In this document: positions 12,880 through 64,000 of the stretch, one piece after another
How positions within the stretch are numbered: the first letter of the stretch is position 1
Layout of the letters: the number at the start of each line of letters is the position of its first letter
Source of the DNA: Candidatus Tenderia sp.
GTDB taxonomy: Bacteria; Pseudomonadota; Gammaproteobacteria; Tenderiales; Tenderiaceae
Reading direction: 5' to 3'
Assembly: GCA_031416075.1 (NCBI GenBank)
Contig: JANOSY010000045.1
Coordinates: 32,001-96,000 of the forward strand
DNA length: 64,000 bases
Program-made: the position numbers and the translations under genes
The notes under the pieces: generated by a model
What the model was told of the DNA's origin: nothing
Database searches by the model: none
The model's input: the letters and a program-made list of their open reading frames with translations, nothing else

Positions 12880-15300
12880 TCAACTGCTCTTCAATTTATT
12901 CAAGGTGGCGCGCGCCTCCTCAACACCCTGGAACTCAGCCTTGGCTGCCAGCGCCTGTTCGAGATGATGCAGCGCACTCTCTCTGTTGCCCTTGGTGTAA
13001 TAGGCCATGCCGATGTGATAGTGAAGCAGCGCTGCCGACGGCATCTTCTTCAGTGCACTCTCCAGAGTGGCAAGCGCCTGATCGACTTCGCCACGGCGGT
13101 AATGGACCCAGCCCACGGTGTCGAGATAGGCGGGTTCATTGCTGTTTGCCAGCGTCATCACCAGATCACGCGCCTTGTTGAGGCTCTCCTGATCGCTGCG
13201 ATGAGTGACGAGCAGCATGGCGAGATTGTTCCTCGCCATCGCGGAGTCCGGCTTGCGTTTCATGAACTCTTCGTAACGGCCAATGGCGCGGTCGAATTGT
13301 CCCTGCCGTTCATCGAGCGCCGCCATGGAGTAGAGCAGCATCTCATTGTCAGGCAGCTGCTTGAGACCAGCCTCATACGCCTGCTGCGCCCCGGCGGCAT
13401 CGTTACGGGCCAGCCGTGCAGAGCCGAGATTACGGTAGGTGGCGGGGATCTTTGGATTGAGTTCGATGGTAGTTGCAAAAGACTTCTCAGCCTCTGCAGC
13501 ATTGCCTGCGAGCAGCAGCACTTCGCCGCGCAGATTCTGCGCCACAACATTATTCGGAGTGCGTTTGAGTGCGCCCTCCAGAACAGCAAGCGCCTCCTTC
13601 GTCTGCCGTTGCGCGAGGTGGGCCTTAACGATGGCCGTCAGTGGCTCAATCGACTCAGGAGATTTATCCAGCGCCTTGCGATAGGCCGTGATTGCCGCCG
13701 CACTCTTGCCCTGCGCCTCCAGTACCATGCCGCTGTAGTAGTCTCCCTGTGGCAGTTGCGGATAGGTCTTGAGCAGCGTCGCTACAGTCGCCTGTGCCGC
13801 TGGCCACTCCTTGCGCGCCATCTGCAACTTGAACATCGCCTCCAGCGCCTGTGGCTGCGTTGCATCTGCTGCCAGCACCTCTGCCACCAGAGTCCGTGCA
13901 TCATCCAGCTTGTCCTGCCGCATCAGCAACTCAGCCAGACCCAGTTTGACCGTGGCATCCTTCGGCAGCAGTACCGCCGCCTTTTGCAGTGTCTCTTCTG
14001 CCAGCCCTAACTCGTTGTTGAGCACATGGGCCTGCGCCAGCAGCTTCAGCGCCTGATAATTATCGGGCTGATCGCGCAGCACGTTGCGCAGATCGACCAC
14101 TGCCGCCGCCGCATCACGCTTTGTCAGCGCCAGCCCCGCATGAATCATCAGCGCCTCGTTATCGTTACTGTTTTTCTTCAACACTTCGGCAAGCAGCTGA
14201 TCGGCCTCTTTGGTATTGCCTTCGACCGCCAGCAGCCGCGCCAGACGGGAGCGGGCGGTCAACCCTGCCGGTGTCTCCGCCGCAGTGCCGATCACATTTC
14301 TATAGGTGGTGATCGCCTCTTTGGGTTGCCCCGCACGTTCGCGCTCAGCCGCAAACGCAAACTGAAGACCATAGGCCTTGGGATCCTTGCTGATGAACTC
14401 CCGCAACTGCGCTGATGCCTGCTCCGCTGTGCCATGCAGATGGAGGAAATTGACCAGCGCAAGGCGCACGCGCGCCTGATCATCATCCTTGGCAACCGCT
14501 TCGCGCAGCACCGTCTCGGCCTGCGGGTAGTCCTTGCCAGCCTCCAGATAGGCGGCCAGGCGCAGGCGATGGGAGAGATCATCAGGTTTAAGGGCAATCA
14601 CATCACGCAGAATTTTTGCGCCCTGGACGATGTCACCCTGCTGGCCCAGAATCTCCGCCATCACAAATTTGATCCCGAGATGTTTGGGATCGCTGGCAAT
14701 GCCCCGTTGCAGCAGCGCCAGCGCCGCCTCGGGGTGGCCCTGAACCCGCTCCAGTCCGGCCAGCATGATAGTCGCCTCGATATGACCGGGACTCTTCTCC
14801 AGCACCTGACGTGCAAGCGCTGTTGCCTCATCAAGCTTCTGCTGTCTGGCCAGCACGCCAGCTTTTAGCGTCAAGGCATCGGCATTGCCGGGCTCCTTGG
14901 CCAGCGCCTCATCCGCCAGCTCAAGCGCCTTGTCGGCCACACCTGAGAGTAAGTAGAGACGTCCCATGCGCACACGCGCCGCCACATTCGTTGCATCCAG
15001 ATCAATCACACGCTGATAGTTGGCCGCTGCTGCGCGCCAGTTCTGCGTCATCTCATCCATCTGACCAAGCTGATAGAGCGCTTCGATATTTTTTGGATCA
15101 ATCTGCAATACGTTCTTGTATTCAAGCCGCGCCTTCTCGAAATTCTGCTGCGCATAAAATTGTTTGCCGCGCTCCATAAATTCAACCTTACGCCCGTCAG
15201 CGCCATCACAGGCAGAAAGCATGAGCGTGGTGCTGATGGCAAGAAACGAAAGGCCGCGAAGGCCATAACGTGAAGGGTGAGAAGAAACAAGAAAAGACAT
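12880..15300 (-). CDS. PrsT-like TPR-repeat lipoprotein of exosortase systems
   Basis: Lipobox LSAC, continuous TPR repeats, C-terminal NNLAML...[10 protein letters not shown]; located in an exosortase locus. Confidence 0.8.
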
Positions 15301-15338
15301 AAAAAATTCCTTCAGTGACAGAGTGTTTGAGTGGCGTC

Positions 15339-15372
15339 ACTGTAACGCGGTCTGTTTACACTACTGTTACAA
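15339..15372 (-). promoter_or_regulatory. PhoB/OmpR-type direct-repeat box plus -10
   Basis: TTGTAAC-AGTA-GTGTAAA, 10 bp, TACAGT. Confidence 0.5.
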
Positions 15373-16989
15373 AACACCGCGAATGAGAATAATCACGAGT
15401 GTCGCGCCTGTCAGAAGACGCACTATGTCGATGCGCCCAGCCACTCTGGGCAGAACCATCTCGATACCGTAATAGAGCACCACAAGTTTTGGAATGTAGT
15501 CGGTCCAGAAGGGGGCAATCTGCTGCGCCTGCGGCAACGTGGGCAGGGCAATCGCCAGAAAGACAATCAGAAAATCAGAGGGGTTGGCCGCGAAACCGCT
15601 ATCCTTCGAATATCTGAAGCCCATCACAACGGCAACCGCCAGCGCGCCAAAAAAGAGCTGGCTCAACGGCAGCCGCTCATGACCAAGACCGGCCAGATAG
15701 AGCAGCACCGCCACCACGATATAGATGACGCCACGCTCCAGCCATGAAATACGCGGTGGCGAGATGCGGGACGCCCGGCTACGCAACCACTCGAACAGCA
15801 ACAGCAGCAGCAACGCCAGACTCAGCAGAGCAATATCCACCGACATGCCGGAGGCCAGCAGCGCCGCGGCCACCATAAAAATGGAGAGCGCCACCATGAC
15901 ATAACCATGTGCAGCGCGCGCCAGCAGTCCATTCCGTCCAATCTGCCTGATCTGCACCAGCCGCTGCTGTGAGATATGCGGCAGATACCGGTTGCAGCGT
16001 TGCGCCAGTGACAACAGGGCGATGACAGCAGCACAAAAAAGGCAGAAGGCTACCAATATGGTTACATCGTTGGCGTAACGCAGCAGGTAGGCCGCCACAG
16101 TCAGACCGGCCTGCAACAGATAGATAACAAAGACCACTTCGTAATGGTTCAGCCCCAGTATCAGCAGGCGATGATGGATATGGTTGCGATCGGGACTGAA
16201 GGGCGAGCGTCCCTCAGAGATGCGTTTCACCATCACCATCGCCGTATCCAGCAGCGGCAACCCCAACAGCAGGAACGGCAGCATGGGGCTAAAATCGGCA
16301 CGGCGCCCCTGCGTCAACATCAACGCCAGCACACCCACCGTCAACCCCAGGAACTGGCTGCCGCCATCGCCCATAAAGATGCGTGCCGGATGGGTATTAA
16401 AGCGCAGGAAACCGAGGATGCTTCCCATCACCGCCAACCCGATAACACTCACAGCATCGAGCTGCACACCATAAGCGAGAAAGACAATCAGCCCGAGACT
16501 CAGAAGCGTTGTCCCCGCTGCCAGACCATCGAGGCCATCGCTGAGATTGATGGCATTGGTGACCGCCAGCAGCACAAACATCGTCAGCGCCACACTCACC
16601 CAGAATGGCAACTCCTCCAGCGCCAGAAAAGGGATGCTGGTGATGTGAACATCACCGTAGAAAATGATGGCGGCAATCGCCACGCCCTGTCCCAGAAATT
16701 TGAGCCGGTAATCGAGATCGGCGCGATCATCCCAAACACCAAAAAACAGGATCACACCCAGCCCCAGCAACACCCCTGCCACCTCACGATCCAGCGGCAA
16801 CCAGACAACCATCGGCACCAGCGCACCTATGGCCATAGCAATGCCACCAATACGGGGTATGGCACCAACATGGACCTTGCGGCCATCAGGTATATCGACG
16901 AATTGAAACCGCTGTGCACCACGCATCAAAGGCGGAATCAACGCCATGGTAATGAGCATGGCGATCACAAAACTCAGCAGCAATACCAT
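15367..16989 (-). CDS. WecA/TagO-type undecaprenyl-phosphate HexNAc-1-P transferase with an extra C-terminal membrane domain
   Basis: PRIGG, GVWDD, NAINLSDGLDGLA, IFMGDGGS and DRNHIHHRL motifs; 540 aa. Confidence 0.88.
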   Translation of the reverse strand: MVLLLSFVIAMLITMALIPPLMRGAQRFQFVDIPDGRKVHVGAIPRIGGIAMAIGALVPMVVWLPLDREVAGVLLGLGVILFFGVWDDRADLDYRLKFLGQGVAIAAIIFYGDVHITSIPFLALEELPFWVSVALTMFVLLAVTNAINLSDGLDGLAAGTTLLSLGLIVFLAYGVQLDAVSVIGLAVMGSILGFLRFNTHPARIFMGDGGSQFLGLTVGVLALMLTQGRRADFSPMLPFLLLGLPLLDTAMVMVKRISEGRSPFSPDRNHIHHRLLILGLNHYEVVFVIYLLQAGLTVAAYLLRYANDVTILVAFCLFCAAVIALLSLAQRCNRYLPHISQQRLVQIRQIGRNGLLARAAHGYVMVALSIFMVAAALLASGMSVDIALLSLALLLLLLFEWLRSRASRISPPRISWLERGVIYIVVAVLLYLAGLGHERLPLSQLFFGALAVAVVMGFRYSKDSGFAANPSDFLIVFLAIALPTLPQAQQIAPFWTDYIPKLVVLYYGIEMVLPRVAGRIDIVRLLTGATLVIILIRGVL

Positions 16990-17004: not shown

Positions 17005-18588
17005 CTAATCAGGAACGTAGCGTGGCAATGCAGGCAACATGGCGGCGGCGAAGCGGGTGAGTGCTGCATCAGCATCAGCAATCTCCTGACCCGGCAACAA
17101 CGGCGCCATCAGGCGCACCAGCGAACCATCAGAGCGGCGGCTGTTCATTGCATCCCACAGCAGATAGCCCTTCACCGCATACTCATTGGTAATAATGCGA
17201 CCACGCTGCTGAAACCAGTAATAGACCAGCAGCTTCTGCTCGCCCTTCTCGATTAGCGCGCGATTGACCTGCATCGGCTGACCTGCATTCACCACGACTG
17301 GCAATCCATATTCGCCAATCTCACTGATCTTCCAGCCACCACCGGGAAGACAGGCACGCGGTGAATGGGGCACCTTGTCGGCACGCTGGGTGGCGTAATA
17401 ACCGACATAGAGATTAATCTTGGAACCCTGCAAATTGCGGTAATCCGCCATCAGATAATCATCAAAATTCAACGCGTCCACATAGATCGCATCAAGACGC
17501 TGCGCCTTGCCATCCCACTCATCAAACGCCATCGGAAAGGATGAGAACTGCTGACGTTCCGGGATAACCTCCGGCCGCTCAGGCAGCGCATACGAGACCG
17601 CCATCACCACCAACACCAATGCGACTGAAACATGGAACGGCACGGGGATGGAGCGGTATCTGAAATCCGCCTTGGATGGTGTGGGCTGCGGAAAGGTCAA
17701 ACCAAATACCTGACGCAACGGCCTCGGGTCTCGACCGATGCGCGTCAGCAACCACATCTCCAGCGCCAGCACGCCGGTGCAGACCATGAACATCACCCAG
17801 CCCTCGAAATCGTGGAGCAGCCCCTCCGCCATCGACGGCCCCCAGTACTCCACCGTCACGCCGATCAGGCCGATGCGGATACTGTTGATAATAATGGTGA
17901 TGGGAATGGTGGAGAGAAACAGCAATACCCGCTTCCACATAGCCACCTTGAAAAAATAGGCGGCGATTAAGCCAAAGGTCATCAACGGAAAGAGATAGCG
18001 CAGACCATTGCACGCCTCGGCCACCTCAAGCTTGTAGGTTCCGAGATCGATCACATTGCCTTCGAGATAGACAGTGATGCCACAGAGGCGCACCACCGCC
18101 ACACCCAGTTGCGACGAAATCAGTTGCAACGAGTTGGAGAGTCCCTGATTGATAAATCCCGGCAATGGCACCATAAACGCCAGAAACAACAGCGGAACAA
18201 AGATCACCCTGAAACCACGCCAGCCAGTAAACGCCAGCGCCAGGCCGAACAGCACCACAACAAATGAGTATTGAATAATGGAGTAGGCAGCACCTAGCTG
18301 CCCCAGCAGAAAGAACAGCACACCGGCCAGCGTCAGCCCGGCGCCTGCCCACGCCCCGGAGAACGGGATCGTTTGCAGGAGATCCTTCTTCTGCCAGATC
18401 AGAAATAGGGTAATGAACGGGATCAGGTAACCGTAGCTATACTCCTCCTGCCCGTTCCACGCCTGAACCATGAAGGAGAGACCATCCTGAAACAGGATAA
18501 TCGCAAGGGCAACCGCCAAGAGGAGTGCACCAAAAACGGCAGGGGACTCTTTCCAGACAGATTCTTCACTAGGAGATATCGTAGACAT
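17005..18588 (-). CDS. xrtD: Exosortase D (VPLPA-CTERM-specific) fused to an EpsI domain
   Basis: EEYSYGYLIP, VAEACNGLRYL (Cys), NSIRI (Arg), HDFEGW (His); EpsI HSPRACLPGGGW. Three VPLPA-CTERM genes lie in the window. ORF extends to 18642; MSTISP start preferred. Confidence 0.88.
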   Translation of the reverse strand: MSTISPSEESVWKESPAVFGALLLAVALAIILFQDGLSFMVQAWNGQEEYSYGYLIPFITLFLIWQKKDLLQTIPFSGAWAGAGLTLAGVLFFLLGQLGAAYSIIQYSFVVVLFGLALAFTGWRGFRVIFVPLLFLAFMVPLPGFINQGLSNSLQLISSQLGVAVVRLCGITVYLEGNVIDLGTYKLEVAEACNGLRYLFPLMTFGLIAAYFFKVAMWKRVLLFLSTIPITIIINSIRIGLIGVTVEYWGPSMAEGLLHDFEGWVMFMVCTGVLALEMWLLTRIGRDPRPLRQVFGLTFPQPTPSKADFRYRSIPVPFHVSVALVLVVMAVSYALPERPEVIPERQQFSSFPMAFDEWDGKAQRLDAIYVDALNFDDYLMADYRNLQGSKINLYVGYYATQRADKVPHSPRACLPGGGWKISEIGEYGLPVVVNAGQPMQVNRALIEKGEQKLLVYYWFQQRGRIITNEYAVKGYLLWDAMNSRRSDGSLVRLMAPLLPGQEIADADAALTRFAAAMLPALPRYVPD

Positions 18589-18637
18589 CAGTGCGGCCAA
18601 CCAGGAGTAATTCGTGGATCGGTTTATGGTGGCCGCA

Positions 18638-18671
18638 ATCATGACAACTGTTTATGACGCGGGTATTACAC
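18638..18671 (-). promoter_or_regulatory. PhoB/OmpR-type direct-repeat box plus -10
   Basis: GTGTAAT-ACCC-GCGTCAT, 10 bp, CATGAT. Confidence 0.5.
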
Positions 18672-18714: not shown

Positions 18715-19353
18715 TCAGGAAGAGGCAGGTCGCACCTTTCTTGCAACCAGCAACATACTTTTCCACAGATATGGAAGGCGTCCGATCCCCTGAAACTCCT
18801 GCACCTCGAACCCCTCCTCTTCAAGCAGCCGCGTCAACATGCTGCGCGAGAAGAACTTGATGTGGCCGCCATCCCATAACGGTGACAAGTGCTGGTCCCA
18901 GTGGCCGGTCACAGCGAGGGCGAGGTTTTTGAGATAACCGTGGTAAGGGGTGGTGATAATGAGCCAGCCCCCCTCCTTGAGCACCTGATTGGCAAAGCGT
19001 GGCAGGGCGCGCGGGGTATAGAGATGTTCGATCACTTCAGTGGAGACCACTGCATCTAAATCGCGTTGCCCCAGTGCCGCTGGATCGTCATAAACACCAA
19101 GATGGCTGAATTGTATTTGCGGAGATGACTCCGCAGCAATGCGTATGCCCTCGGCATCGGCGTCACAACCCATCACATTAAAACCCGAGCGGGCGAGCGC
19201 CTTTGCAATATCACCCTTACCACAGCCCAAATCCAGTACATTGCGCACCCCTAGGCTACGACACGCATTAACAACAGCGGGTTCAAGGTAGCCATTTGAT
19301 GGAACGCTCTGATTTACAGTCCATCCGTAATCTTCAACCCGGAGATGTGCCAT
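18715..19353 (-). CDS. Class I SAM-dependent methyltransferase
   Basis: VLDLGCGKG, VVSTEVIEHL and GHIKFF motifs. Confidence 0.88.
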   Translation of the reverse strand: MAHLRVEDYGWTVNQSVPSNGYLEPAVVNACRSLGVRNVLDLGCGKGDIAKALARSGFNVMGCDADAEGIRIAAESSPQIQFSHLGVYDDPAALGQRDLDAVVSTEVIEHLYTPRALPRFANQVLKEGGWLIITTPYHGYLKNLALAVTGHWDQHLSPLWDGGHIKFFSRSMLTRLLEEEGFEVQEFQGIGRLPYLWKSMLLVARKVRPASS

Positions 19354-19374
19354 GATGACTCCTCTGTTAGATGT

Positions 19375-20277
19375 TCAATGCTTTTGTTCTGACAGCACCG
19401 CTGCTTCACCATGAGGAGAGAGTGTGCGCATAAATTCGCGTGTAACCTGCCACCATGGTGCTGTTTCGTCCCATGCAGCCGGAGCGTTTCGCTTACCATC
19501 CCAATCGCCCCAGATCACGAGACCATCGGCGTGCTGGTGCACGGTCTCAAGCTGCAAACGCCAGTAGTCCGCAGGCAGATACTGCTGCCCCAGGATTTCA
19601 TTGCGCTCGGAATATTGAGGCCACAGAAATACATGAACCGACTTGCCATAACGGCGTGCTTCACGCAGGTGGGCCGTGGCATATTTCACCCATGCATCCC
19701 GGTCTGGATAGTAGGTATACAACGGCAGATAGATGGTATCGACAAGCTCAGCAAAGTCATCAAGACGAGCATTCTCGTCCTGCCATGTCCGGTAGTGGCG
19801 ACTATCCCTGTTTTCCAGTGACCAATGGTATACAACGCCCGGCAAGCGCCCAAAGAATCCAATATTCAGTCCTGGTGCTTCGTTCCTCAGCCACTGCAAG
19901 ACGGTGATATATTTGGCCTGGCTCTCACGCATCTGCGCCTCATCGCCTTCCAGCGGCCAATGTTCTATATCAATGACCACGGGCTTGCGCATGGCACGCA
20001 GATCACGCCCTAAACGGCGGACCCGATACTCGTCAGGCAAACGCTCCATCAGACGTGACGAACGCGTATCTGGCCAGAAACGTGCGGCATAGAGAATTTC
20101 GATCGGCTCTATTCCATAACTGTCTAACCTTGGTTTATTACGGTACAGGGTGGCATCAAACACTTTGAATTTCTCTGTCTCTGGATTGGTTCCTGCCACC
20201 GGCGCAGCCAGCGTCAATGTTGGCAGCCACAATGCCAGCCACAGCAGTGCCACACGGCGATGAAGTGTGGTTATCAT
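19375..20277 (-). CDS. Secreted glycoside-hydrolase-like protein (GH56/hyaluronidase-like), paralog 1
   Basis: Signal peptide; VVIDIEHWP, GFFGRLP, WQDENARL, IYLPLY and ADGLVIWG occur in the order of the GH56 motifs. Confidence 0.55.
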   Translation of the reverse strand: MITTLHRRVALLWLALWLPTLTLAAPVAGTNPETEKFKVFDATLYRNKPRLDSYGIEPIEILYAARFWPDTRSSRLMERLPDEYRVRRLGRDLRAMRKPVVIDIEHWPLEGDEAQMRESQAKYITVLQWLRNEAPGLNIGFFGRLPGVVYHWSLENRDSRHYRTWQDENARLDDFAELVDTIYLPLYTYYPDRDAWVKYATAHLREARRYGKSVHVFLWPQYSERNEILGQQYLPADYWRLQLETVHQHADGLVIWGDWDGKRNAPAAWDETAPWWQVTREFMRTLSPHGEAAVLSEQKH

Positions 20278-22948: not shown

Positions 22949-22994
22949 TTTCACAACAACCTTTTTGAATTCCATAACAACCATGCCACCCTGA

Positions 22995-24712: not shown

Positions 24713-24818
24713 TGTTTTGGCTGAACCGTATCGACGGCAGTCAGTTCCCTCGTCAACTAAAGAAACGCCCATGACCATCAACATCGCCACCCGCGACAGT
24801 CACAGACATAAACTCGAT

Positions 24819-25819: not shown

Positions 25820-25830
25820 GGCTTATGTAG

Positions 25831-53800: not shown

Positions 53801-56800
53801 AGCACCAGAGTATCAGCGGCAATCATCTGAATGTCGCCAAACGGCGCCTTCACTACGCCACCTTGATAGATGTTGTCAGCCTTCATGATTAGATTGGAGC
53901 CCGCCGACAATACCGGAGCCGGGTCAGCCGCTGCTACGGGAAGCACACTCAAATTGCCGTCGGAACGGGTTACCTCAATGCTGTACTGCGTTAAGGTGGA
54001 GGGATAGAGCTGAGCCGCGCTTAGCTCAAGATTGCCGAAACTGTTAAGACTCCCGCGCCACTCGTTGCCATTACCAAGCGGCAACAAACCACGCATCCGG
54101 ATATCACCCTCACTGTTGAGACTCGCTTGCTGCCATCCTTGCAGAGTTACATTGCCAATGAGATCGATATGTTGTGCCTCGATTTCGAGCTGACCATCCG
54201 CCCCATTCGACTCTGGCTGCACCGCATCGGCCGCACCGCTGTCGGCCAAAGCCACATACGCCGCCGCAATCCTGGAATCACCTCCGACGTTGTTCAATAG
54301 CGGAGCATCGAAGACGACACTGCGTTTGAGGTCAATGTTCACATGATCAAGATTGATCTGGCCACTTATTCGCGCCCCGTCCCGGTTCAACACCATATCA
54401 CTGGCACGCAAGGTAAGACTGTCAAAACCACCGTCTTCTACTGCGTTTGCGCTCACTACTGCCTGGCCATTCATTGTTCCCGGCAGCGCTGTGCCGGGTT
54501 TCCACTTCGCAGGAAGCGCAACGCCCTGAGCCGCCAACGTAATCACTCGCGGACCTGTTGGAAAATCCAGATAGGGTTGCGGCGGCGTCAATAGGGGATT
54601 GCCACGCTTAAGTGCATCCAATGCCACAGATAACTCTCCGCCCACCGCACCTGAACCACCGGCATGACCGGTGAGCGTTCCAGAAAGCACCATACCTTCT
54701 GCAGCCGTCAACCGGATCGCACCGGCGTTACTGGCGATTGTCTGTAATGTTCCGTTGATGGCAGAACCCTGTGACCGCACCAGCAACTCTGCTGCCGTGC
54801 CAGACACATCAAGGAGTGAACCCACGTCAGTAACGATATAGCCATTATCAGCTGTCACATTGATCTGACCACCGGATAAAACTTCACCCATGTTCAGATC
54901 AAGTGTGTTGGGCATCAGCTCTACAACGCCTTGCGCTAGCAGGCGCGCCTGAGAACCCAAATGGATTGCAAGCTCAGGATGGTAGTAAATGTCTTCAGGA
55001 AAGATTGTTTTTGGGAGGGAGACTTGCAGATCAATCTCCCCGGCGGGTGCCGACAACACACCGTTGATATCGACACCATGATCGGAGGACAAGCTCAGCT
55101 TAGCGCCGCTATCGGCCTCGATCCGCGCCCCCGCCTCAATCTCAAAATGCGCGGGGGTAAAGTTAAACGCCGCTGTCTGACTCAAATTCAAGCTCAAGTC
55201 GACAGGACGGCGTCGGTCATCCGGCAACATCACTGCCGAACTGAACTCGGAAATGTCGGAACCAGTCGCGCGGCGTAAATAATCACCCTCCAGCATCAAG
55301 GTCGATGCTCGCGGCTGCACCACGGTATCAGCTGCGACAATGATGCCGCCCAGATTGGAAGTGAGCGTATAACTACTAAAACCGCCTTGCTGGAAGAATT
55401 CAGGTGTCCGCAGCAATTCACCAGGAAGATCACTACCAGACTGACCGATGCGCAAGGTATTCGTTTCGATACTCAGCGTGCCGCCCTTGCCAGCGGCGTA
55501 GGCATGGATATCACCCCCCAACTCCATTTCCGCTCCTGCCTCCAAGGAGACCCGGCTCAGCAATGAAATATCGCCGCCATTGCCCGCAGACAACTTGCCC
55601 TTCGCATCAACAAAGGCGCCACCATCTGCTTCGATGACGCTGCCGGAGGCCAGCTTCAGATCACCTTGTGCATTCAATGCGACCGCCCCGCCGTTTATCA
55701 ACAACGGCTCTGTGCCAGGGATAACATTGGTCAAAGAGTAATCGTTTACCCATACACCGCTGACATCAATATACGAGCGTTCACCCATGGTGATCGGTCG
55801 ATTGACAACATCCTTGGTCTGAATAGTGGCCAAAGAGACTCTACCTGCCGGTACAGTGATGCTGCCGTCAATACTAACCCCGGAACCGCTAACCTTGAAT
55901 TCGCCTCCCGCCGGAAGGTTTATGGTCGTTCCTTCAGGTATGTCCACCGAACCGTTGTGATTCAATATCAAACGACCGACGCCACCCTCTTGCAACAAAC
56001 GGGGATCGATCGTAATGCTTTTACTTGGATCAAGTGCTGTCTCTGGGTCATATGCTTCAGCTGATGCGTGGGCAAATTTCACCGTGGCAGGATCGTACTT
56101 TAATCCGCCTTGGCCCAACTTCACGAGATCCAAATTCAGGGTTCCCAATTCAGGCGAACGCTTCGGATTACGCTGATAGTTACCATACGTAACACCCGCC
56201 AGTACATCGCCCTCCAAACGCAACGCGCTTGAAGTGACATTGAAGGTTCCGGCTGACCTACCCTCGGTATATTTATCTTCGTAATATCCTTGCGCAACGG
56301 GACCAGCGATAGTCCATGCCTGCTTCATGCCCCACTTGGCATCCGTGCGCGTATATTCACCGAGAACACCGTCATAAATCAGATTCGGATCAGCATCGCT
56401 GATATCATAAATTTTGCTATCGGAAACCAGTTTGGTGGTGTTCATCCAACCAGCGTCATAATTCACTTTGCCGCCGGAGATATCCACCTTCGACTCGGGC
56501 GCCATAACGAAATCGCCTTCCGAAGCGACATTCACTGTTCCACCCACCGCGAGGCGCTCACCCACATCGCGTTTGATCTTGGCAAGTTCGCCGGAAATAT
56601 CAGCGATTGGAATTTCCTTGCGAATATCGATGATCACCTTCTTGCCACGCAACACGCCATCACGCTGCAGGGGAGAGTCCTTGAGTTCGTTGGAGAACAG
56701 TTCTAGCTGGATCTCGTTACGATCCATCGCCAGTTCCGTGCTGGTTGTACCGCCAACATCGATCAGGGTTCCCGATTCCATGATCACACGACTGCCGTTC

Positions 56801-58056: not shown

Positions 58057-59640
58057 TTAGAATTCATAACGGGTGTTGAAATGAAAACGCGCATCACTGC
58101 GCTTGATGCTGCCCGCATCTTCCAGAGGCGAGGCCCAGTCGAGGGCGACAATAATATTTTTGGCGGCCACCAGCCGGGCACCGACGCCCGCGCTGGCCAG
58201 ATGCTGTCTGGCTGTTTCAGAGGGAAGCGGATCCTGGCGCTTCAACCAGGCGCTGTCGGCAAACAGCAGCAGTTGCAAATCGTTGAGCCACGGCCAGCTG
58301 GCCGGGAGCAACGGCGGGCTGCGCAGCTCCAGGTTGGCCAGCAGCGCATCGTCACCCATCGCCTGCGATTCGGGATAACCGCGCACCGTGTCGACGCCAC
58401 CGGCATTGAACTGTTCGTTACTGATCAAGGGTGAATCACTCAGCTGCGCGCCCAGATGGAGACGCCAGGTGCTCTTCATGAAGCCCGCGTGCAGCCGTTC
58501 GACATCGACATTTAAATGGCTGAAATTGGCCTTGGCATTAAACCGTTTGTTGCGGAACTCCTCCTCACTGTTGCCGAAGATGCGCAGACCAAACGAGCCA
58601 CCCAGCGAATAACTGGTCGAGCCCTGCCCATCCTGCTGACGGCGGTTGAATTTCGCCTGGCCGACGGCATAACTGATCGGTGTCGAAATACCGTTGCCAT
58701 CGGGCAGCAGCACCTCCTGGCGTTGATCCTTGTATTGAACCCCGAGCGAGAGTCCCTGGCTCACCCGTTTCACCGCCGGTAACTGCCGCTGCCAGGTGAC
58801 GCCATAGATATCACCGTTGCCGAGCACGCCCAGAGTACCGAGCGCCGCCGAGTGACTCACCGAGTGCACGGCGGAAAAATTCCAGCGCGCCTGCTCCACC
58901 GGGATGGAGTAACCCAGCACCCAGACCCGCACCTCTTCCCACTGCTGCGGCGAGGCCTGATAGTTCAGCGATGCAGTGTGATGGCGCTGCCACAGATTGG
59001 CGTAACTCAGCCCCGCCTCCATGCGCAGATGAGAACTACCGAGCGTGTAGCGGTCATTGAAACCGAGGCTGCCATGCAGCGGCGAGTGATCCTCGACCTT
59101 CAGTTCAGCCTCCATCGTGCCGGGCTCGATACCGGGGCGAAATACAGGATTGAGGGTGCGGTCCGGCGCCACGGCGCTGGCCGCCGCCAGCTGCGCTTGT
59201 AGTGTCGGCAGATGCAAAGGAGAGCCCGGTTGCAGTGCCGGAATCTCATCACGCAGATCGCGCGGTGAAAAATAGCGTGCGCCGGTGACGCGGAAACGTT
59301 CGATCTTGCTCTCAACCACCTGCAGGCGGATCACACCATCGTTCGCCTCCTGCTCAGGAATGTTCACCAGCACGGCGGCATAACCTGCATCACGATAGGC
59401 CTGCTCCAGATCACGCTTCGCTGCCTCGACATCGGCCAGGCTTTTGTTACTGCCCAGAAATGGGTAGACCACATTTTCCACCGAGGCGCGCGGCAACAGC
59501 GTCGCCCCCTCCACCTGAAACTCCCAGACATCAAAACGTGGCTCAGCCGCTGCTGGCGGCACCTCGTTCGCCTGCACAGCACCGCACCAACACACCAGCA
59601 CCACCACAACAGAACGCTTCATTGCAGATCCAAAACTCAT
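58057..59640 (-). CDS. ShlB/FhaC/HecB-family TpsB transporter (PdtB-like)
   Basis: POTRA FDVWEFQVEG...YRDAGY; GGVDTVRGY loop-6 motif; terminal aromatic residue (YEF). Confidence 0.92.
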   Translation of the reverse strand: MSFGSAMKRSVVVVLVCWCGAVQANEVPPAAAEPRFDVWEFQVEGATLLPRASVENVVYPFLGSNKSLADVEAAKRDLEQAYRDAGYAAVLVNIPEQEANDGVIRLQVVESKIERFRVTGARYFSPRDLRDEIPALQPGSPLHLPTLQAQLAAASAVAPDRTLNPVFRPGIEPGTMEAELKVEDHSPLHGSLGFNDRYTLGSSHLRMEAGLSYANLWQRHHTASLNYQASPQQWEEVRVWVLGYSIPVEQARWNFSAVHSVSHSAALGTLGVLGNGDIYGVTWQRQLPAVKRVSQGLSLGVQYKDQRQEVLLPDGNGISTPISYAVGQAKFNRRQQDGQGSTSYSLGGSFGLRIFGNSEEEFRNKRFNAKANFSHLNVDVERLHAGFMKSTWRLHLGAQLSDSPLISNEQFNAGGVDTVRGYPESQAMGDDALLANLELRSPPLLPASWPWLNDLQLLLFADSAWLKRQDPLPSETARQHLASAGVGARLVAAKNIIVALDWASPLEDAGSIKRSDARFHFNTRYEF

Positions 59641-59718
59641 GTGAAATCCAACCTCGACACAATTCACAGACGGCCTGAAAAAAATCAGCACAGACCCAGT
59701 AAAAACCTCAAGACGGGC

Positions 59719-59763
59719 ATTATGCGCGACACGTATTACATGGCAGTTACATCTCTGTTACAC
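59719..59763 (-). promoter_or_regulatory. Triple PhoB/OmpR-type direct repeat plus -10 for tpsB-tpsA
   Basis: GTGTAAC-AGAG-ATGTAAC-TGCC-ATGTAAT, 10 bp, CATAAT. Confidence 0.65.
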
Positions 59764-59965: not shown

Positions 59966-61390
59966 TTACAGTTGAGACTCTACGTTGTTGATTGCAGGTA
60001 CGGCACAGTTGTTCACCTTGCCACCCTGGATCGCGTGGCTGCCTTGGGCAACCGGACCCGTTGCATCGGTCACCAGATAGCCGTTGGTGTTCAGGGACAT
60101 ATAACCGCCCTTACCAAAGCTGTGGTTGAAGCTGGCATTGATGGTGTTAATGATCGAGGGCTTGCCGGACTGCTTGGCGAGCGCGCTCAGGATCGTTGGA
60201 ACGCGGCTATCGGAATAACTAACAGTCTTACGCCACTGCATGGTCTCTTCCGCCCAGTCAAAGTACTTGTTGCTCTTGGCATTGTCCACAGTCGGAGCTA
60301 CGCCATCAACCTTGATGAAACGGTAGTTCTTGGCATGAGTTGCATTCTTTTCGGTGGACTGAATACCGATAGCCCAGTTGCCCGCAACCTCTTCATTGTT
60401 CATACAGGTCTCAACATCACCCGAGCCCTCGCCCTGAGTCACGATCGGACCGAAGTCGACATCGCTATCCGCAGCGGCTACCAGTCCCCCGGCGACACAA
60501 GGGTTGGCCAGGAATTTGGCCTGGAACTGAGCCTGGGTGCCAGAACCTGGCACACGGCGGCAGATGTGCACAAAGCTGTCAGCAGGTGCGGTCACACCGG
60601 GAACAGCAGTCAAAGCAGTCGTCAGACCGCCCACCTTCAACTGGGTCCAGTCGGTCATGCCACCTACAGCCATCAGGCCAGCGATCTGCTGTTTGCTCAG
60701 GCTCGGCATATGAGCATCAGTAAAATCACCGACAGTCTTATTTTGAGCCCGCTGCAATGCCGCGTACAGCTTGTCATTCACGATCACACCGAACACGCCA
60801 CCACGAGTGGAGACAACATTCGGGAGATTATCGAGCACAGTTTTGGATACGGCTGAAAAACCGGCAGGGACGTTCGGACCAACAAACAGTGCTGGCTCTA
60901 CGTCTGACATGCCGCCATCCGGGCCGGTCGCATTGGTCTGGAAGTTGGAGGTCTCGTCGTAGCCGCAGTTGTACTTGTTGGTGCCAGCAGAAGTACAGTT
61001 ACCGCTGCTGACGCCCATGAACTTGACGCTGGCATCAGCCATGGCGACCGGAGCTACACCCCACCCTGAACCACCCTTCGAGCGCTTGAAGATCAGCACT
61101 TTGGTATCGGCAGCCAGGCCGGTGATCTTGGTCTTGTCAAGGGTACAGGAGAAAGCGGTCTGCCAAGAACCAGCGCTGGAACCACTGGCCACGCCGTTGT
61201 CAGAATAGGTATCCAAGGTGTCCTTGCACAGCTGGGGCATCAGCAATTGCAGACCTTTGTCCTGGGCACTGGCACCAGAGATGTAGATCTTGAGCGCACC
61301 GGTAGCTGCATCAGCAGGGGCAAAGGCATGGGCCTGACCGACAACCAGGCCAGTAGCAGCCATGGCGAGTACGATAGATTTTAATTTCAT
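59966..61390 (-). CDS. Secreted PstS/DING-like phosphate-binding-fold protein
   Basis: Signal peptide (AHA); SGASA, GGSGWG, GMSD and RRVPGSGT motifs in PstS order; 8 Cys. Confidence 0.65.
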   Translation of the reverse strand: MKLKSIVLAMAATGLVVGQAHAFAPADAATGALKIYISGASAQDKGLQLLMPQLCKDTLDTYSDNGVASGSSAGSWQTAFSCTLDKTKITGLAADTKVLIFKRSKGGSGWGVAPVAMADASVKFMGVSSGNCTSAGTNKYNCGYDETSNFQTNATGPDGGMSDVEPALFVGPNVPAGFSAVSKTVLDNLPNVVSTRGGVFGVIVNDKLYAALQRAQNKTVGDFTDAHMPSLSKQQIAGLMAVGGMTDWTQLKVGGLTTALTAVPGVTAPADSFVHICRRVPGSGTQAQFQAKFLANPCVAGGLVAAADSDVDFGPIVTQGEGSGDVETCMNNEEVAGNWAIGIQSTEKNATHAKNYRFIKVDGVAPTVDNAKSNKYFDWAEETMQWRKTVSYSDSRVPTILSALAKQSGKPSIINTINASFNHSFGKGGYMSLNTNGYLVTDATGPVAQGSHAIQGGKVNNCAVPAINNVESQL

Positions 61391-61542: not shown

Positions 61543-62415
61543 TTAGACTGACAGGACTTCATCCTGCTGGCGGCGGCGGGCAACACCCACCAGACCGGCC
61601 AAGGCGGAACCGAGCAGCAGTACTGCTGGGGGCAGCGGTACCGGGGGAGCAGAGGCGACGTCATAGCTCAGGGCGCCATTGGCGGTCAGAGCCCATGTTC
61701 CGGCAAACAGATCGGTGTAAGTACCTGCGGGGGAGGTCAGCTTATTGGTAGCCGGGTCATACTTTGCACCGATATGATAGAAGGCCAGGCTCGTGCCTAC
61801 TGCGGCCTCGTCATTAAAAGTCAACGACCTGCCAATGTCGCTTGACCAGGTAATAGCATTGCCGTAATAACCATCGTCAGTCGAAGACGTATTCGTGGTG
61901 CTACGGTTCTGGGCATAAGCATTCAGGGCGTCACCAAACTGGACGTTGGCATCACTGTTAGCACCGGCGATATAGCTATTAGCCTGCAACATAGACGACT
62001 TGAGATTGGTGTAGCTCATGCTGGACACAGCGCTGGAAGCATCATTGGAAGTGGCATACAGGCCGTACTTGGCCACGTCTGCGCCAGGTTTGTCTGTACG
62101 CACACCCACCAGGTTCCAGACCATGTTGGCGGAATTGTTATTGCCAAACAGATTGGTGTAAACGCTGTCAGTCGCAAGTTTGGCAGTGAAAGAGCTGTTC
62201 CATGAGGAGCTTGAAGAACTGCCTAGACTGGTAATAAAATCGTCGACGGTGATACCCAGATCGCGGGTATATGATTCTGCGGCAACTGAATCGTATACGG
62301 ACAGAAACAATTCGCCTGCGCCCTGGCCAGACTGCCCTGGGTTGATCGCGGCATTGGCACCACCAGCGGCCACCATGGCCAGTGCGGCAACTACCGCTTT
62401 TATTTTGAATTTCAT
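61543..62415 (-). CDS. VPLPA-CTERM sorting-domain protein (Ser/Thr/Asn-rich)
   Basis: Signal peptide (ANA); ELFLSVYD...SYTRDLG; C-terminal VPLPPAVLLLGSALAGLVGVARRR. Confidence 0.9.
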   Translation of the reverse strand: MKFKIKAVVAALAMVAAGGANAAINPGQSGQGAGELFLSVYDSVAAESYTRDLGITVDDFITSLGSSSSSSWNSSFTAKLATDSVYTNLFGNNNSANMVWNLVGVRTDKPGADVAKYGLYATSNDASSAVSSMSYTNLKSSMLQANSYIAGANSDANVQFGDALNAYAQNRSTTNTSSTDDGYYGNAITWSSDIGRSLTFNDEAAVGTSLAFYHIGAKYDPATNKLTSPAGTYTDLFAGTWALTANGALSYDVASAPPVPLPPAVLLLGSALAGLVGVARRRQQDEVLSV

Positions 62416-62799: not shown

Positions 62800-62861
62800 G
62801 CAGTGTGCCCAAAGCACTACGTGGGGCAGGCTCTGGGTAAGCGTTTTTTGCGTAACCCACC
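62800..62861. repeat. REP-like palindrome interrupted by the 28-bp micro-element (62807-62834, minus orientation)
   Basis: Removing GCCCAAAGCACTACGTGGGGCAGGCTCT restores GTGGGTAAGCG-TTTTTTG-CGTAACCCAC. Confidence 0.7.
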
Positions 62862-62899: not shown

Positions 62900-62933
62900 T
62901 CGATACCACCCCCGCATTACATCCGTGTGACAG
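62900..62933 (-). promoter_or_regulatory. Pho-box-like repeat facing the riboswitch/VPLPA operon
   Basis: CTGTCAC-ACGG-ATGTAAT, 10 bp, TATCGA (weak -10). Confidence 0.5.
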
Positions 62934-62959
62934 TAATCGAGACGCTCAAACAGCCCCCG

Positions 62960-62993
62960 CTGTCATCTTTCTGTAGTGAAACTGTCATAGCCT
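62960..62993 (+). promoter_or_regulatory. Pho-box-like triple repeat plus -10 upstream of gspG
   Basis: CTGTCAT-CTTT-CTGTAGT-GAAA-CTGTCAT with 11-bp periodicity; TAGCCT lies 10 bp after the second half-site. Confidence 0.65.
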
Positions 62994-63038
62994 TGCCTTC
63001 CCGAACAAGACCATTCACAGCAACAGACCGGAATCATC

Positions 63039-63461
63039 ATGCAACATCAAAGAATAAATCCTGAACTTGGTTTTACACTGCTGGAGTTACTGGTGGTGAT
63101 GGTCATCATCGGCCTGCTGGCCGGTTATGTCGGGCCAAAATATTTTACCCAGGTCGGCAAATCGGAAGTGAAAACCGCCAAGGCGCAGATCGTGGCGCTG
63201 GAGCAGGCGTTCGATCAGTATCGTCTCGATACCGGCCACTACCCCACCACTGAGCAAGGGCTGGCAGCGCTCTTCGTTAAACCTGGCGATGAACCAAAGT
63301 GGAACGGCCCCTATCTGAAAAAAGCGACACCGCCGGACCCGTGGGGCAAGCCCTATATTTATAAACAACCGGGCGAGCACGGCGAACTTGATCTGCTCTC
63401 TTACGGCAAGGATGGCCAGCCGGGTGGCAGTGACAACGCTGCTGACATCACCAACTGGTAA
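63039..63461 (+). CDS. gspG: Type II secretion major pseudopilin
   Basis: GFTLLELLVV prepilin site, YPTTEQGLAAL, WNGPYL and DPWG motifs. Confidence 0.95.
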   Translation: MQHQRINPELGFTLLELLVVMVIIGLLAGYVGPKYFTQVGKSEVKTAKAQIVALEQAFDQYRLDTGHYPTTEQGLAALFVKPGDEPKWNGPYLKKATPPDPWGKPYIYKQPGEHGELDLLSYGKDGQPGGSDNAADITNW

Positions 63462-63466
63462 TAGCC

Positions 63467-64000
63467 ATGCTCTTCGATGTAAAAGCGTTAAAAGGCCGTG
63501 ATGCTGCACTGCTGACACTCGAAGCTGGCAGTGTTGACGATGCCCGTGCTCAGGTGCTACGTCAGGGTTACACCATTATCAGTTGCACGCCGCGCGGTGT
63601 GCAGTTGAATACTCTGTTTAAACGCCAGACACCGTTTCCGCTGTCGCTCTTTAGCCAGGAGTTGCTGGCGCTGTTGCAGGCGGGACTCAACCTAGTGGAG
63701 GCGATCAGCGCGCTGGCGGAGAAGGAGTCGCGTCACGAGATCAAAAAGATTTTCGACGGGCTGCTGCACTCGTTGCGTGAGGGGCGGACGCTCTCTACGG
63801 CCATGGAGCAGTTGCCACGCATCTTCCCGCCGCTCTACATCGCCACGGTGCGCAGCAGTGAACGTACCGGTAATTTGCATGATGCGTTGTCACGCTACAT
63901 CGCCTATCAGGCACAGGTGGAGCTGCTGAAGAAGAAGATCGTCAGCGCATCGATCTATCCGCTGCTGTTGCTGGCGGTGGGTGGCCTGGTGATGCTGTTT
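63467..64000 (+). CDS. gspF: Type II secretion inner-membrane protein F (partial)
   Basis: Manual translation from ATG 63467: FSQELLALLQAGLNLVEA...SERTGNL...KKIVSASIYP; runs off the window. Confidence 0.9.
   Translation, partial: MLFDVKALKGRDAALLTLEAGSVDDARAQVLRQGYTIISCTPRGVQLNTLFKRQTPFPLSLFSQELLALLQAGLNLVEAISALAEKESRHEIKKIFDGLLHSLREGRTLSTAMEQLPRIFPPLYIATVRSSERTGNLHDALSRYIAYQAQVELLKKKIVSASIYPLLLLAVGGLVMLF

Follow-up and report, generated by a model that had tools for sequence, protein, structure and literature searches.

The window, a 64,000-nucleotide stretch of DNA from a 3.49-Mb Candidatus Tenderia genome, holds from position 12880 onward a block in which an exosortase-EPS locus is followed by a fibre-motor-porin module and the first genes of a type II secretion system (T2SS). 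The HMM scans confirmed the gene content that the first-pass annotation had assigned. The exosortase-EPS half contains the following features:

12880-15300, minus strand: PrsT-like TPR protein (TIGR02917, 300.9 bits, just below the 312.2 cut-off)
15367-16989, minus strand: WecA/MraY-type initiating glycosyltransferase, GT4 (PF00953, 122.9 bits)
17005-18642, minus strand: XrtD exosortase fused to EpsI (TIGR04152, 557.4 against a cut-off of 400; TIGR02914, 141.9 against 42.8)
18715-34812, minus strand: EPS biosynthesis and export genes, Wzx/Wzy/PCP/OPX (Pfam and NCBIfam matches)
34898-35419, minus strand: VPLPA-CTERM cargo 1 (TIGR03370, 28.0 bits)
35437-35973, minus strand: conserved 178-aa protein, a putative ribbon-helix-helix regulator by sequence pattern
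36243-36914, plus strand: VPLPA-CTERM cargo 2 (TIGR03370, 23.8 bits; C-terminus TVPLPAAGWLLGSGLMMLVAYGRK)

The EPS genes encode a methyltransferase, glycosyl- and acetyltransferases, Wzy, a MurJ/Wzx-like flippase, an AsnB-type amidotransferase, a tyrosine kinase, a chain-length determinant, an unnamed 390-aa secreted protein and a short Wza/OPX protein. Cys211, Arg256 and His277 of XrtD are invariant across eight exosortases, and the PrsT-GT4-XrtD trio, with PrsT as its first gene, is kept in G001, G303, G238, G389, G401 and G027; in G409, XrtD and GT4 lie at a contig end and PrsT was not seen there. The 178-aa protein gave no match in Pfam and NCBIfam scans and an Atlas lead to the PutA RHH domain (0.88), and in eight XrtD genomes a homologue neighbours the XrtD locus, the cargo genes of that locus or the module, whereas the fetched regions of ten XrtD-negative genomes yielded none. 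This half resembles the XrtD/VPLPA-CTERM system (NCBIfam TIGR04152, TIGR03370) and the XrtA/PEP-CTERM EPS loci, reportedly described by Haft and colleagues, in its XrtD-EpsI fusion above cut-off, PrsT-like TPR protein, PEP-CTERM-type chain-length determinant, tyrosine kinase, OPX protein and amidotransferase, and in clients whose VPLPA tag comes with a transmembrane stretch and an Arg-rich tail. It differs from them in having only three clients, all in the block, and in that one client family belongs to the neighbouring phosphate-starvation module and bears other exosortase tags elsewhere. The remainder of the block is made up as follows:

37007-37038, plus strand: REP-like repeat, 32 nt (further copies at 42673-42704 and, as reverse complement, 62806-62834)
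37111-37785, minus strand: secreted coiled-coil protein occupying the PA0697 position (kept after Porin_5 in 20/25 other module genomes)
37794-39443, minus strand: Porin_5 outer-membrane barrel, corresponding in position to PA0696 (PF16930, 560.1 bits)
39498-40166, minus strand: TonB/TolA-like protein, assigned from its sequence (PF13103 at only E = 0.026)
40188-40592, minus strand: ExbD/TolR (PF02472, 103.1 bits)
40596-42344, minus strand: ExbB/TolQ with N-terminal DUF2341 and LamG domains (PF01618, PF13385, PF10102)
42345-47814, unstranded: low-GC insertion of 5.4 kb between tpsA and exbB (GC 0.46-0.47)
42695-43627, plus strand: IS30 transposase in the insertion (NF033563, 294.7 bits)
44670-47522, minus strand: 950-aa TIGR03790 protein with thrombospondin-type-3-like repeats, in the insertion
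47815-58020, minus strand: TpsA giant exoprotein, 3401 aa, PdtA type (TPS domain PF05860, DUF3739 PF12545)
58057-59691, minus strand: TpsB transporter (PF03865, PF08479)
59735-59762, minus strand: three TGTAAY half-sites at 11-bp spacing, Pho-box-like, upstream of tpsB
59966-61390, minus strand: secreted protein of predicted PstS fold (PBP_like_2-type) with large insertions and eight conserved cysteines
61543-62415, minus strand: cargo 3, a module-linked family with a VPLPA-CTERM tag (TIGR03370, 26.6 bits)
62916-62999, unstranded: Pho-box-like repeats between cargo 3 and gspG (motif match)
63039-63461, plus strand: GspG major pseudopilin (TIGR01710, 181.1 against 88.85)
63467-64000, plus strand: GspF, running off the window (PF00482)

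The genes for the proton-driven motor resemble Tol-Pal and TonB-ExbBD systems in the succession of ExbB/TolQ and ExbD/TolR stators (best NCBIfam matches TolQ and TolR, both below cut-off), a TonB/TolA-like protein with a membrane anchor, Pro-rich spacer and small C-terminal domain, and outer-membrane and periplasmic coiled-coil proteins. They differ from those systems in that ExbB carries periplasmic DUF2341 and LamG domains and the outer-membrane partner is a Porin_5 barrel, in which the Pfam scan found no plug or TBDT domain, rather than a plugged TBDT or TolB/Pal. In 23/25 other module genomes, no more than about 4 kb separates DUF2341-LamG-ExbB from Porin_5. The low-GC insertion, on which the first-pass annotation was silent, holds IS30 and three ORFs, namely two small ones and the TIGR03790 gene; G001, a genome of the same genus, lacks it and has a tpsA-exbB gap of 183 bp. 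The T2SS extends beyond the window to window-equivalent position 71984; besides G, F and E it has four genes for the platform, one for a secretin and three resembling pseudopilin genes. It is an optional accessory of the block, as an orthologue of its secretin occurs in 5/25 other module genomes (adjacent in three) and G001 has only T2SS remnants while retaining XrtD, the cargo genes and the module.

The module has a counterpart in PA0677-PA0699 of P. aeruginosa PAO1, a parallel that the first-pass annotation had drawn and that the available text of PMC7035377 and PMC2729926 bears out, listing there the hxc T2SS, lapA, pdtA, phdA, pdtB, exbB2, exbD2, tonB4, PA0696 (a putative porin) and PA0697 under PhoB/sigma-VreI control. 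Compared by gene kinds and order, not by sequence, the two share a secreted PstS/alkaline-phosphatase-type protein, a TPS pair, ExbB-ExbD-TonB, a porin and a signal-peptide protein, in the same order, along with a nearby T2SS and a phosphate-starvation signature of Pho-box-like repeats and phoB. They differ in that no ECF sigma or anti-sigma gene (vreI/vreR) was found among the ORFs scanned here, that tpsB precedes tpsA (in G349, G353 and G401 tpsB stands beside exbB, as in P. aeruginosa), that the T2SS genes are arranged as G-F-E / PilN/O-like platform / secretin, and that an exosortase-tagged protein lies beside the PstS-fold gene with an XrtD-EPS locus adjoining the module. Both component systems are separately known already.

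The product of 59966-61390 had been called PstS/DING-like, an assignment for which sequence support was weak (25 bits, below the cut-off of 27, and no PDB sequence match) but which held at the level of the predicted fold. Foldseek with the model (pLDDT 91.1) gave 46 matches at E<=0.001, all 46 being phosphate-binding proteins, DING included (best E = 8e-9), and an R279-x-x-G-S-G-T motif is conserved in 52 homologues, consistent with a PstS fold. Motif matching found two TGTAAY-type Pho-box-like sites in the window against a shuffle mean of 0.09, and such a site occupies the same place upstream of tpsB in G001, G303 and G389. Between cargo 3 and gspG, CTGTCAT-N4 is repeated three times on the plus strand (62960-62999) with one pair on the minus strand (62916-62932), and phoB (TIGR02154, 325.5 against 296.2) lies 12 kb beyond the window and, in G001, 3 kb from cargo 3. 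These motifs suggest that the fibre/motor/porin cluster is likely switched on by phosphate shortage. An earlier claim that one promoter box recurs in both halves was not upheld; the sole recurring intergenic sequence of at least 11 nt is the REP-like repeat, of which the genome has 16 copies spread over 12 contigs, and other shared 11-mers occur at chance level only.

A genome-wide search with TIGR03370 (cut-off 25.35) showed that the only convincing VPLPA-CTERM proteins are the three in the block, which lie on both sides of the module as first annotated. Cargo 1 homologues adjoin Wza in G001, G238 and G398, and the cargo 3 family adjoins the PstS-fold gene within the module in most module-bearing genomes, a gene pair that is conserved and, in G167, duplicated as a pair. 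The cargo 3 N-domain was found in 15/15 genomes with XrtD and the module and 8/11 with the module only, compared with only 1/24 with XrtD only (OR 176). Its C-terminal tag reads VP[LVI]PA in 15 XrtD genomes (in one more, G398, the gene is cut by a contig end) and VPEAETW or VPEPETY, of PEP-CTERM type, in all five genomes with a non-XrtD exosortase (G047, G361, G194, G335 and G141), while exosortase-free G167 has no tag and instead about 170 aa of additional C-terminal sequence. Counting against this match is G103 (96% complete), in which cargo 3 carries VPLPPAVW and no exosortase was found. The tag type probably tracks whichever exosortase the genome carries, and cargo 3 is, on this sequence evidence, the probable tie between the exosortase locus and the module.

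The first-pass annotation had proposed looking for co-occurrence and synteny beyond this genome, and both were found. In one set of 401 genomes, XrtD was present in 39 and the Porin_5 module in 26, with both in 15, XrtD only in 24, the Porin_5/ExbB module only in 11 and neither in 351 (Fisher p = 1.5e-10, OR 19.9), and at the family level XrtD was present in 28, the module in 21 and both in 12 of about 213 (p = 3e-7), although these tests overstate the co-occurrence because related genomes are not independent. The systems are linked on one contig in at least eight of the 15 genomes that have both; these represent at least seven families, with three arrangements and 38-57% protein identity. In 7/15, a single contig carries XrtD and Porin_5 at a distance of 17-62 kb; the distance is 22 kb in G401, the one closed genome with both systems, the module lies 9 kb from an XrtD-type chain-length gene in G286, and contig ends in G398 are compatible with the gene order of the window (chance of at least 8/15 within 62 kb, about 4e-8). 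The EPS locus adjoins the coiled-coil end of the module in G000, G001, G303, G238 and G401 and G389 and G409 have it at the cargo 3 end instead, with the order shuffled in G027, and an XrtB locus (TIGR03113, 400.7 against 275) adjoins the same module in G141. In four of the 15 (G126, G192, G201 and G282) the systems sit on separate contigs, neither having the other within the 10-20 kb of flank examined; the linkage count leaves G217 and G407 unjudged. The coupling of XrtD and module is facultative. The ExbB tree is poorly resolved (10/23 inner branches open) and cannot count origins of the association.

We read the block, with somewhat better than even confidence, as a composite in which an XrtD/VPLPA-CTERM exosortase-EPS locus sits beside a module that resembles PdtAB/ExbB2-ExbD2-TonB4/PA0696-PA0697 and includes a PstS-fold protein, the two being likely coupled via one shared client, cargo 3, and not forming a single export machine. 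A different account is that there is no functional tie, and that two accessory envelope systems and a T2SS have gathered in a flexible, IS-rich island and travel together. Six IS types (IS30, IS110, IS200, IS630, IS3 and IS4) lie in or beside the block, which also contains the low-GC insertion, and G003, the closest relative (MoeA 95% identical), lacks the entire block, which G001 and G004 have, making hitch-hiking possible, as does the separation of the systems, within the flanks examined, in 4/15 co-occurring genomes. We nevertheless consider this unlikely, given linkage across at least seven divergent families in three gene orders, the second exosortase type beside the module in G141, and a cargo 3 tag that tracks the resident exosortase, which hitch-hiking does not predict.

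A more doubtful alternative is that the module is chiefly a phosphate-acquisition system, in which the PstS-fold protein, with cargo 3 as partner or tether, scavenges extracellular phosphate, the Tol-like motor and Porin_5 take in the ligand or the loaded protein, and the EPS/XrtD locus provides only the matrix retaining the scavenger. The predicted fold with its conserved motif, the Pho-box-like sites near phoB and the conserved cargo 3-PstS pair would fit such a role, as would LapA of P. aeruginosa, a secreted low-molecular-weight alkaline phosphatase (available text of PMC7035377). A further precedent, from the available text of PMC10957091, is ZepA of Anabaena, a zinc-supplying PEP-CTERM exoprotein that belongs to the Zur regulon and has TonB-type transporter genes in its neighbourhoods; it shares with cargo 3 an exosortase tag within a nutrient-starvation regulon but differs in nutrient and protein family and has no TPS fibre, DUF2341-ExbB motor or Porin_5 with it. 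Against this reading, the 3401-aa TpsA, always present, has no role in it, and Porin_5 is not a TonB-dependent receptor.

The first-pass annotation had instead seen one integrated machine, in which the TPS, TonB-like motor, Porin_5 and T2SS pass VPLPA-CTERM substrates across the outer membrane and assemble a glycoprotein/EPS layer. Its expectation of co-occurrence and linkage with XrtD stood, but the proposed export role was not supported. The 24/39 XrtD genomes lacking both Porin_5 and DUF2341-ExbB, some with dozens of VPLPA-type C-terminal matches (43 in G119, 25 in G307), and the 11/26 module genomes lacking XrtD, four of the 26 with no exosortase found at all, indicate that the module is not a general outer-membrane step; to our knowledge, the P. 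aeruginosa module likewise occurs without an exosortase. Despite the non-random association, three cargo genes all in the block and flanking the module, a client gene embedded in it, and the scarce knowledge of how exosortase clients cross the outer membrane (available text of PMC10957091), we judge such a machine very improbable, as the EPS half has its own OPX export gene, the T2SS secretin is rare among module genomes and the T2SS was lost in G001, and Porin_5 lacks a plug, so that the motor cluster probably does not act as exporter for the exosortase at the outer membrane.

For the favoured composite with a shared client, the gene order and motifs suggest a course of events in which expression of tpsB-tpsA, the T2SS and cargo 3 is likely turned on by phosphate shortage acting via PhoB. 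The giant TpsA fibre would leave the cell through TpsB; for cargo 3 and the PstS-fold protein the export route would be Sec. XrtD may then cleave the VPLPA-TM-Arg tag of cargo 3 and pass the protein to the surface or to the EPS matrix that the neighbouring Wzx/Wzy genes would produce, with ZepA as a precedent for an exosortase-tagged exoprotein under starvation control (PMC10957091, available text). If this is true, the phosphate-starvation apparatus would gain a matrix-anchored component through XrtD-cleaved cargo 3.

The genome (3.49 Mb, 95 contigs) carries the window at C45:32001-96000, and HMM scans of 37 ORFs bore out nearly all of the gene list drawn up in the first-pass annotation. The left half, on the minus strand, encodes a PrsT-like TPR protein, a WecA-like transferase and XrtD (exosortase D) fused to EpsI, continues with a methyltransferase, glycosyl- and acetyltransferases, Wzy, a MurJ/Wzx-like flippase and an AsnB-type amidotransferase, and ends in a tyrosine kinase, a chain-length determinant, an unnamed 390-aa secreted protein and a short OPX protein, followed by two VPLPA-CTERM proteins and a small conserved ORF. 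The right half consists of a coiled-coil protein, Porin_5, a TonB/TolA-like protein, ExbD and DUF2341-LamG-ExbB and, after an insertion, TpsA, TpsB, a PBP_like_2-type protein, the third VPLPA-CTERM protein and a divergent gspG-gspF pair. Both halves are of known kinds. The TpsB/TpsA, DUF2341-LamG-ExbB, ExbD, TonB-like, Porin_5, coiled-coil and PstS-fold genes are referred to here as the module.

Features of the window discussed in the text
33041-34213, 390-aa secreted protein
34898-35419, minus strand, VPLPA-CTERM protein (cargo 1)
35437-35973, 178-aa protein
36243-36914, plus strand, VPLPA-CTERM protein (cargo 2)
42345-47814, insertion between tpsA and exbB
59966-61390, 474-aa protein with a predicted PstS fold
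61543-62415, minus strand, VPLPA-CTERM protein (cargo 3)

The exosortase is the sole one in the genome to pass the XrtD-specific cut-off (TIGR04152, 557.4 bits against 400). Its EpsI domain is C-terminal (TIGR02914, 141.9 against 42.8; PF11984, 209 bits), and C211, R256 and H277, which we take to be the conserved Cys/Arg/His of exosortases, are invariant across the eight exosortases compared (seven XrtD and one XrtB). The PrsT-like TPR protein scores just below its cut-off (TIGR02917, 300.9 bits against 312.2), and its gene adjoins XrtD in six other genomes (G001, of the same genus, and G303, G238, G389, G401 and G027). A Wzx/Wzy-dependent EPS set is present, with an initiating transferase (PF00953), a flippase (PF03023), Wzy (PF04932), an OPX protein (PF02563 plus SLBB), a PCP scoring slightly under its cut-off (TIGR03007, 272.3 against 278.85) and a tyrosine kinase below that of TIGR03018. 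Between the chain-length and short OPX genes, the 390-aa protein is conserved and beta-rich, matches no family and may be a barrel partner of the OPX protein.

All three VPLPA-CTERM clients (28.0, 26.6 and 23.8 bits; cut-off 25.35) lie inside the block, the next-best matches in the genome reach at most 19.6 bits, and a regex scan and HMM search of the whole genome found no further VPLPA-CTERM protein. The earlier observation that cargo genes stand on both sides of the module is therefore true and, since the genome has only these three, not trivial. The 178-aa protein matches no family, and its N-terminus resembles a ribbon-helix-helix DNA-binding motif. Eight XrtD genomes have homologues close to the XrtD locus, to its cargo genes or to the module, and none was found in the regions taken from 10 XrtD-negative module genomes, making it a candidate regulator of the XrtD system. 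Elsewhere the genome encodes a second, non-XrtD exosortase (C14:21320-22654, 157 bits on the XrtD model), and one protein (C56:20890-21750), ending in IPIPATLFLLLMGGLGLVVRR, is possibly its client.

In the right half, TpsA (3401 aa) has TPS and DUF3739 domains (PF05860, PF12545) and TpsB is of the ShlB type (PF03865, PF08479). The TonB-like protein matched the TonB C-terminal domain only at E = 0.026, and the outer-membrane partner lacks both the plug and the TonB_dep_Rec barrel of TonB-dependent transporters, its sole match being Porin_5 (PF16930), a family with no match in 14 control genomes. The order ExbB-ExbD-TonB-porin-secreted protein beside a TPS pair is the order printed in PMC7035377. 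According to that paper and PMC2729926, the P. aeruginosa cluster runs hxc-lapA-pdtA-phdA-pdtB-exbB2-exbD2-tonB4-PA0696 (a putative porin)-PA0697 and is under PhoB and sigma-VreI. The parallel drawn in the first-pass annotation thus holds for gene kinds and gene order, on which the likeness was judged. In P. aeruginosa, however, vreA-vreI-vreR (PUMA3) lies beside the cluster, whereas the window lacks these genes, and no ECF sigma or anti-sigma family was found among 65 ORFs scanned in the window and 16 kb beyond.

The insertion between tpsA and exbB is 5.4 kb of low-GC DNA containing IS30, a pair of small ORFs and a TIGR03790 protein of 950 aa whose Asp-rich repeats resemble thrombospondin type 3. 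In G001 the same gap is only 183 bp, so that in the window's genome the motor genes and tpsBA may have ceased to share a transcript. The IS30 boundary falls precisely on one copy of a 32-nt REP-like element, which has the look of an insertion target. This element, with an internal hairpin (GCCC-CAC-GAA-GTG-CTTT-GGGC), occurs at 37007-37038, 42673-42704 and 62806-62834, and in 16 copies on 12 contigs. It is the only recurrent intergenic sequence detected; a promoter box common to both halves, as first proposed, was not found, 11-mers shared between the halves were REP-like or at chance level, and the sigma-54 promoter pattern was at chance level (97 matches against 95 expected).

The association of the two halves was examined in one class-level set of 401 genomes at least 90% complete, with the same genomes in the XrtD and Porin_5 searches. 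XrtD scored above cut-off in 39 genomes and full-length Porin_5 was found in 26, leaving out two further genomes with partial matches only; both occurred in 15 (odds ratio 19.9, p = 1.5e-10, a figure inflated by kinship). At the family level, both were present in 12 of about 213 families, XrtD in 28 and Porin_5 in 21 (p = 3e-7, likewise inflated by kinship). The co-occurrence and synteny beyond this genome expected in the first-pass annotation were thus found, and 7 of the 15 genomes with both have XrtD and Porin_5 on the same contig. In 23 of the 25 other module genomes, no more than about 4 kb separates DUF2341-ExbB from Porin_5.

Distance between XrtD and Porin_5 where both are on one contig
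G303, 17 kb
G000 (the window's genome), 19 kb
G401 (the only closed genome with both), 22 kb
G389, 24 kb
G027, 33 kb
G238, 53 kb
G409, 62 kb

Among the remaining genomes with both, G286 has the module 9 kb from an XrtD-type chain-length gene, G398 has two contigs ending exactly at the join expected from the window's order, and four (G126, G192, G201, G282) have the systems on separate contigs, the other system being absent from the 10-20 kb flanks examined; linkage could not be scored in G217 and G407. Three arrangements were distinguished by tblastn maps of the block's relatives: the EPS locus abuts the coiled-coil end (G000, G001, G303, G238, G401), lies on the cargo 3 side (G389, G409), or, in G027, the order is shuffled and exbB adjoins prsT. 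Protein identity to the window is 38-57%, and the block is therefore not one recent island. In G141, a genome without XrtD, an XrtB locus (TIGR03113, 400.7 against 275) abuts the same module. Records from Sulfuricella, Sulfuriferula and Methylococcales also include homologues. An ExbB tree was too poorly resolved for a count of the origins of the association, and in the genus flank comparison for gain or loss en bloc the contig breaks sit at the junction. In G313, which lacks XrtD and a cargo 3 homologue, a PrsT-like TPR protein adjoins the coiled-coil/Porin_5 end (region L037, G313:C1, 2227396-2229759).

The proposal that the module provides the outer-membrane step for exosortase clients was not supported by this comparison. 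The module is absent from 24 of the 39 XrtD genomes, and XrtD-only genomes can hold many VPLPA-type C-terminal matches (43 in G119); conversely, 11 of the 26 module genomes lack XrtD, and four of these (G103, G167, G349, G353) show no exosortase at all. Because each system often occurs without the other, the module cannot be a general outer-membrane route for such proteins.

The T2SS can be followed beyond the window, where its outline is complete, with GspE, PilN/PilO-like platform genes, a secretin and pseudopilins; GspG scores above its cut-off (181.1 against 88.85), GspE (508.5 against 630.25) and GspD (179 against 351.35) score below theirs, and GspF is also present. An orthologue of the window-type secretin occurs in only 5 of the 25 other module genomes (G141, G389, G282, G047, G361), adjoining the module in three of them. 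In G001, short fragments of gspE and gspG are all that lies between the lactonase gene and cargo 3 (region L096, G001:C5, 13688-14110), a T2SS deletion judging by these remnants, while the same genome still has an intact module, XrtD and the full trio of cargo genes. The T2SS is an optional accessory rather than an integral part.

The tie that stands is cargo 3. Its N-domain family gene lies immediately upstream of the PstS-fold gene, and an HMM built from 42 members tracked the module (full-length matches counted; odds ratio 176).

Full-length cargo 3 matches by class of genome
XrtD and module, 15/15
Module only, 8/11 (not G313, G349, G353)
XrtD only, 1/24 (G404)

In 15 XrtD genomes cargo 3 ends in VP[LVI]PA-hydrophobic-Arg; in one more, G398, the C-terminus is lost at a contig end. 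In all five genomes with a non-XrtD exosortase (G047, G361, G194, G335, G141) the tag is VPEAETW or VPEPETY, of the PEP-CTERM type, and in the closed, exosortase-free genome G167 both module-flanking copies are tagless and carry an extra extension of about 170 aa. An exception is G103 (region L084, G103:C18, about 21150-22010), where cargo 3 has a VPLPPAVW tag and no exosortase was found in a genome 96% complete; the C-terminus in G165 was unreadable. Read from sequence, the C-terminus of the family follows the resident exosortase, G103 and G165 excepted. The N-domain was modelled with confidence (model m8b88e34b1618, window 61543-62415; pLDDT 81.5, pTM 0.76), and no PDB entry matched it in Foldseek at E<=0.001 (lowest E 0.78); in VIA-align the top score among 48,161 chains was Z 3.3, none reaching 3.4. 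The domain may have an undescribed fold, though lack of a recognised fold does not prove a new one.

The neighboring 474-aa protein was called PstS/DING-like in the first-pass annotation, a call that stood at the level of fold and not of sequence. Its model (pLDDT 91.1) returned 46 Foldseek matches at E<=0.001, all 46 of them PstS or DING phosphate-binding proteins (best 8.4e-9, TMt 0.74); by sequence, the Pfam score was 25 (below 27), phmmer found no match in the PDB, and a profile search reached PstS chains only at E = 0.14-0.5. The predicted structure thus has the PstS fold. Within an R-x-x-G-S-G-T loop, R279, G282 and G284 are invariant among 52 homologues and S283 and T285 are kept in at least 90%; the R-x-x-x-S-G-T loop is presumably the phosphate-binding motif of the PstS/DING type. 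Eight cysteines are also invariant or kept in at least 90% of these homologues. Seven genomes (G000, G001, G303, G389, G165, G313, G141) have a DsbC gene in the vicinity of the module. Complex prediction for cargo 3 (23-258) with the PstS-fold protein (23-474) gave 0.00, 0.38 and 0.00 in three runs, which speaks neither for nor against binding.

Possible signs of phosphate control come from motif matches. The 64-kb window has Pho-box-like repeats phased at 11 bp at just two sites, against a mean of 0.09 in shuffled sequence.

Pho-box-like sites (motif matches)
Site 1, upstream of tpsB, three half-sites with 11-bp phasing
Site 2, cargo 3/gspG intergenic region, one pair, beside three CTGTCAT-N4 repeats just upstream of gspG

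Across the whole window, the Pho-box 18-mer gave 8 matches against 6.4 expected, the only standouts being a cluster at 62960-62999 and the 11-bp-phased sites. By the same kind of match, the site ahead of tpsB is also present in G001, G303 and G389, and G001 has a triple site in front of phoB. PhoB itself (TIGR02154, 325.5 against 296.2) is encoded beyond the window after the T2SS, where the order is a lactonase/Big_9 protein, several IS elements, PhoB and DsbC; in G001, phoB and dsbC directly adjoin the block.

The genes, their conserved neighborhoods and the match of tag to exosortase are observed, and from what is known of the families a course of events can be proposed. Under low phosphate, PhoB would induce the module; TpsB would export TpsA, Sec would export cargo 3 and the PstS-fold protein, and XrtD would remove the VPLPA tag and then pass cargo 3 to the surface or the EPS matrix. 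A bolder reading is of a Pho-regulated surface apparatus (TpsA fibre, DUF2341-ExbB Tol-like motor, Porin_5 and PstS-fold protein) with its own exosortase client of unrecognised fold, whose tag (VPLPA, PEP-CTERM or none) suits the resident exosortase, and beside which exosortase-EPS loci of at least two types, XrtD and XrtB, would have been recruited. The whole would form a phosphate-starvation surface layer in which the exosortase fastens a phosphate-scavenging complex to the matrix of polysaccharide, a reading that we offer tentatively and consider on balance rather doubtful. A precedent for an exosortase client in nutrient scavenging is ZepA, which PMC10957091 describes as a PEP-CTERM exoprotein of the zinc-starvation regulon.

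Neither the recurrent junction of the halves nor a tag-switching client in the module appeared in any paper found in the open literature searched. There, nothing related was found on VPLPA-CTERM, only false matches on XrtD or exosortase D, and no work joining exosortases to two-partner secretion; where DUF2341 is paired with ExbB, it appears only as an unexplained appendage.

Exosortases are widespread and, to our knowledge, almost nothing is known of the tasks of their clients or of the conditions that call for them. The P. aeruginosa pdt/exbB2/PA0696 locus is linked to phosphate starvation and virulence, and its function still awaits an explanation. A client in that module whose tag switches with the exosortase offers both fields a practical, testable entry point: a single protein to trace (its processing, location and partners), low phosphate as the presumed inducing condition, and well-separated mutants to compare (xrtD versus exbB, porin or tpsB). 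This analysis also puts right the attractive notion that exosortase clients had found their missing outer-membrane exporter in the module. If the surface-layer reading is true, XrtD would for the first time have a physiological role assigned to it.
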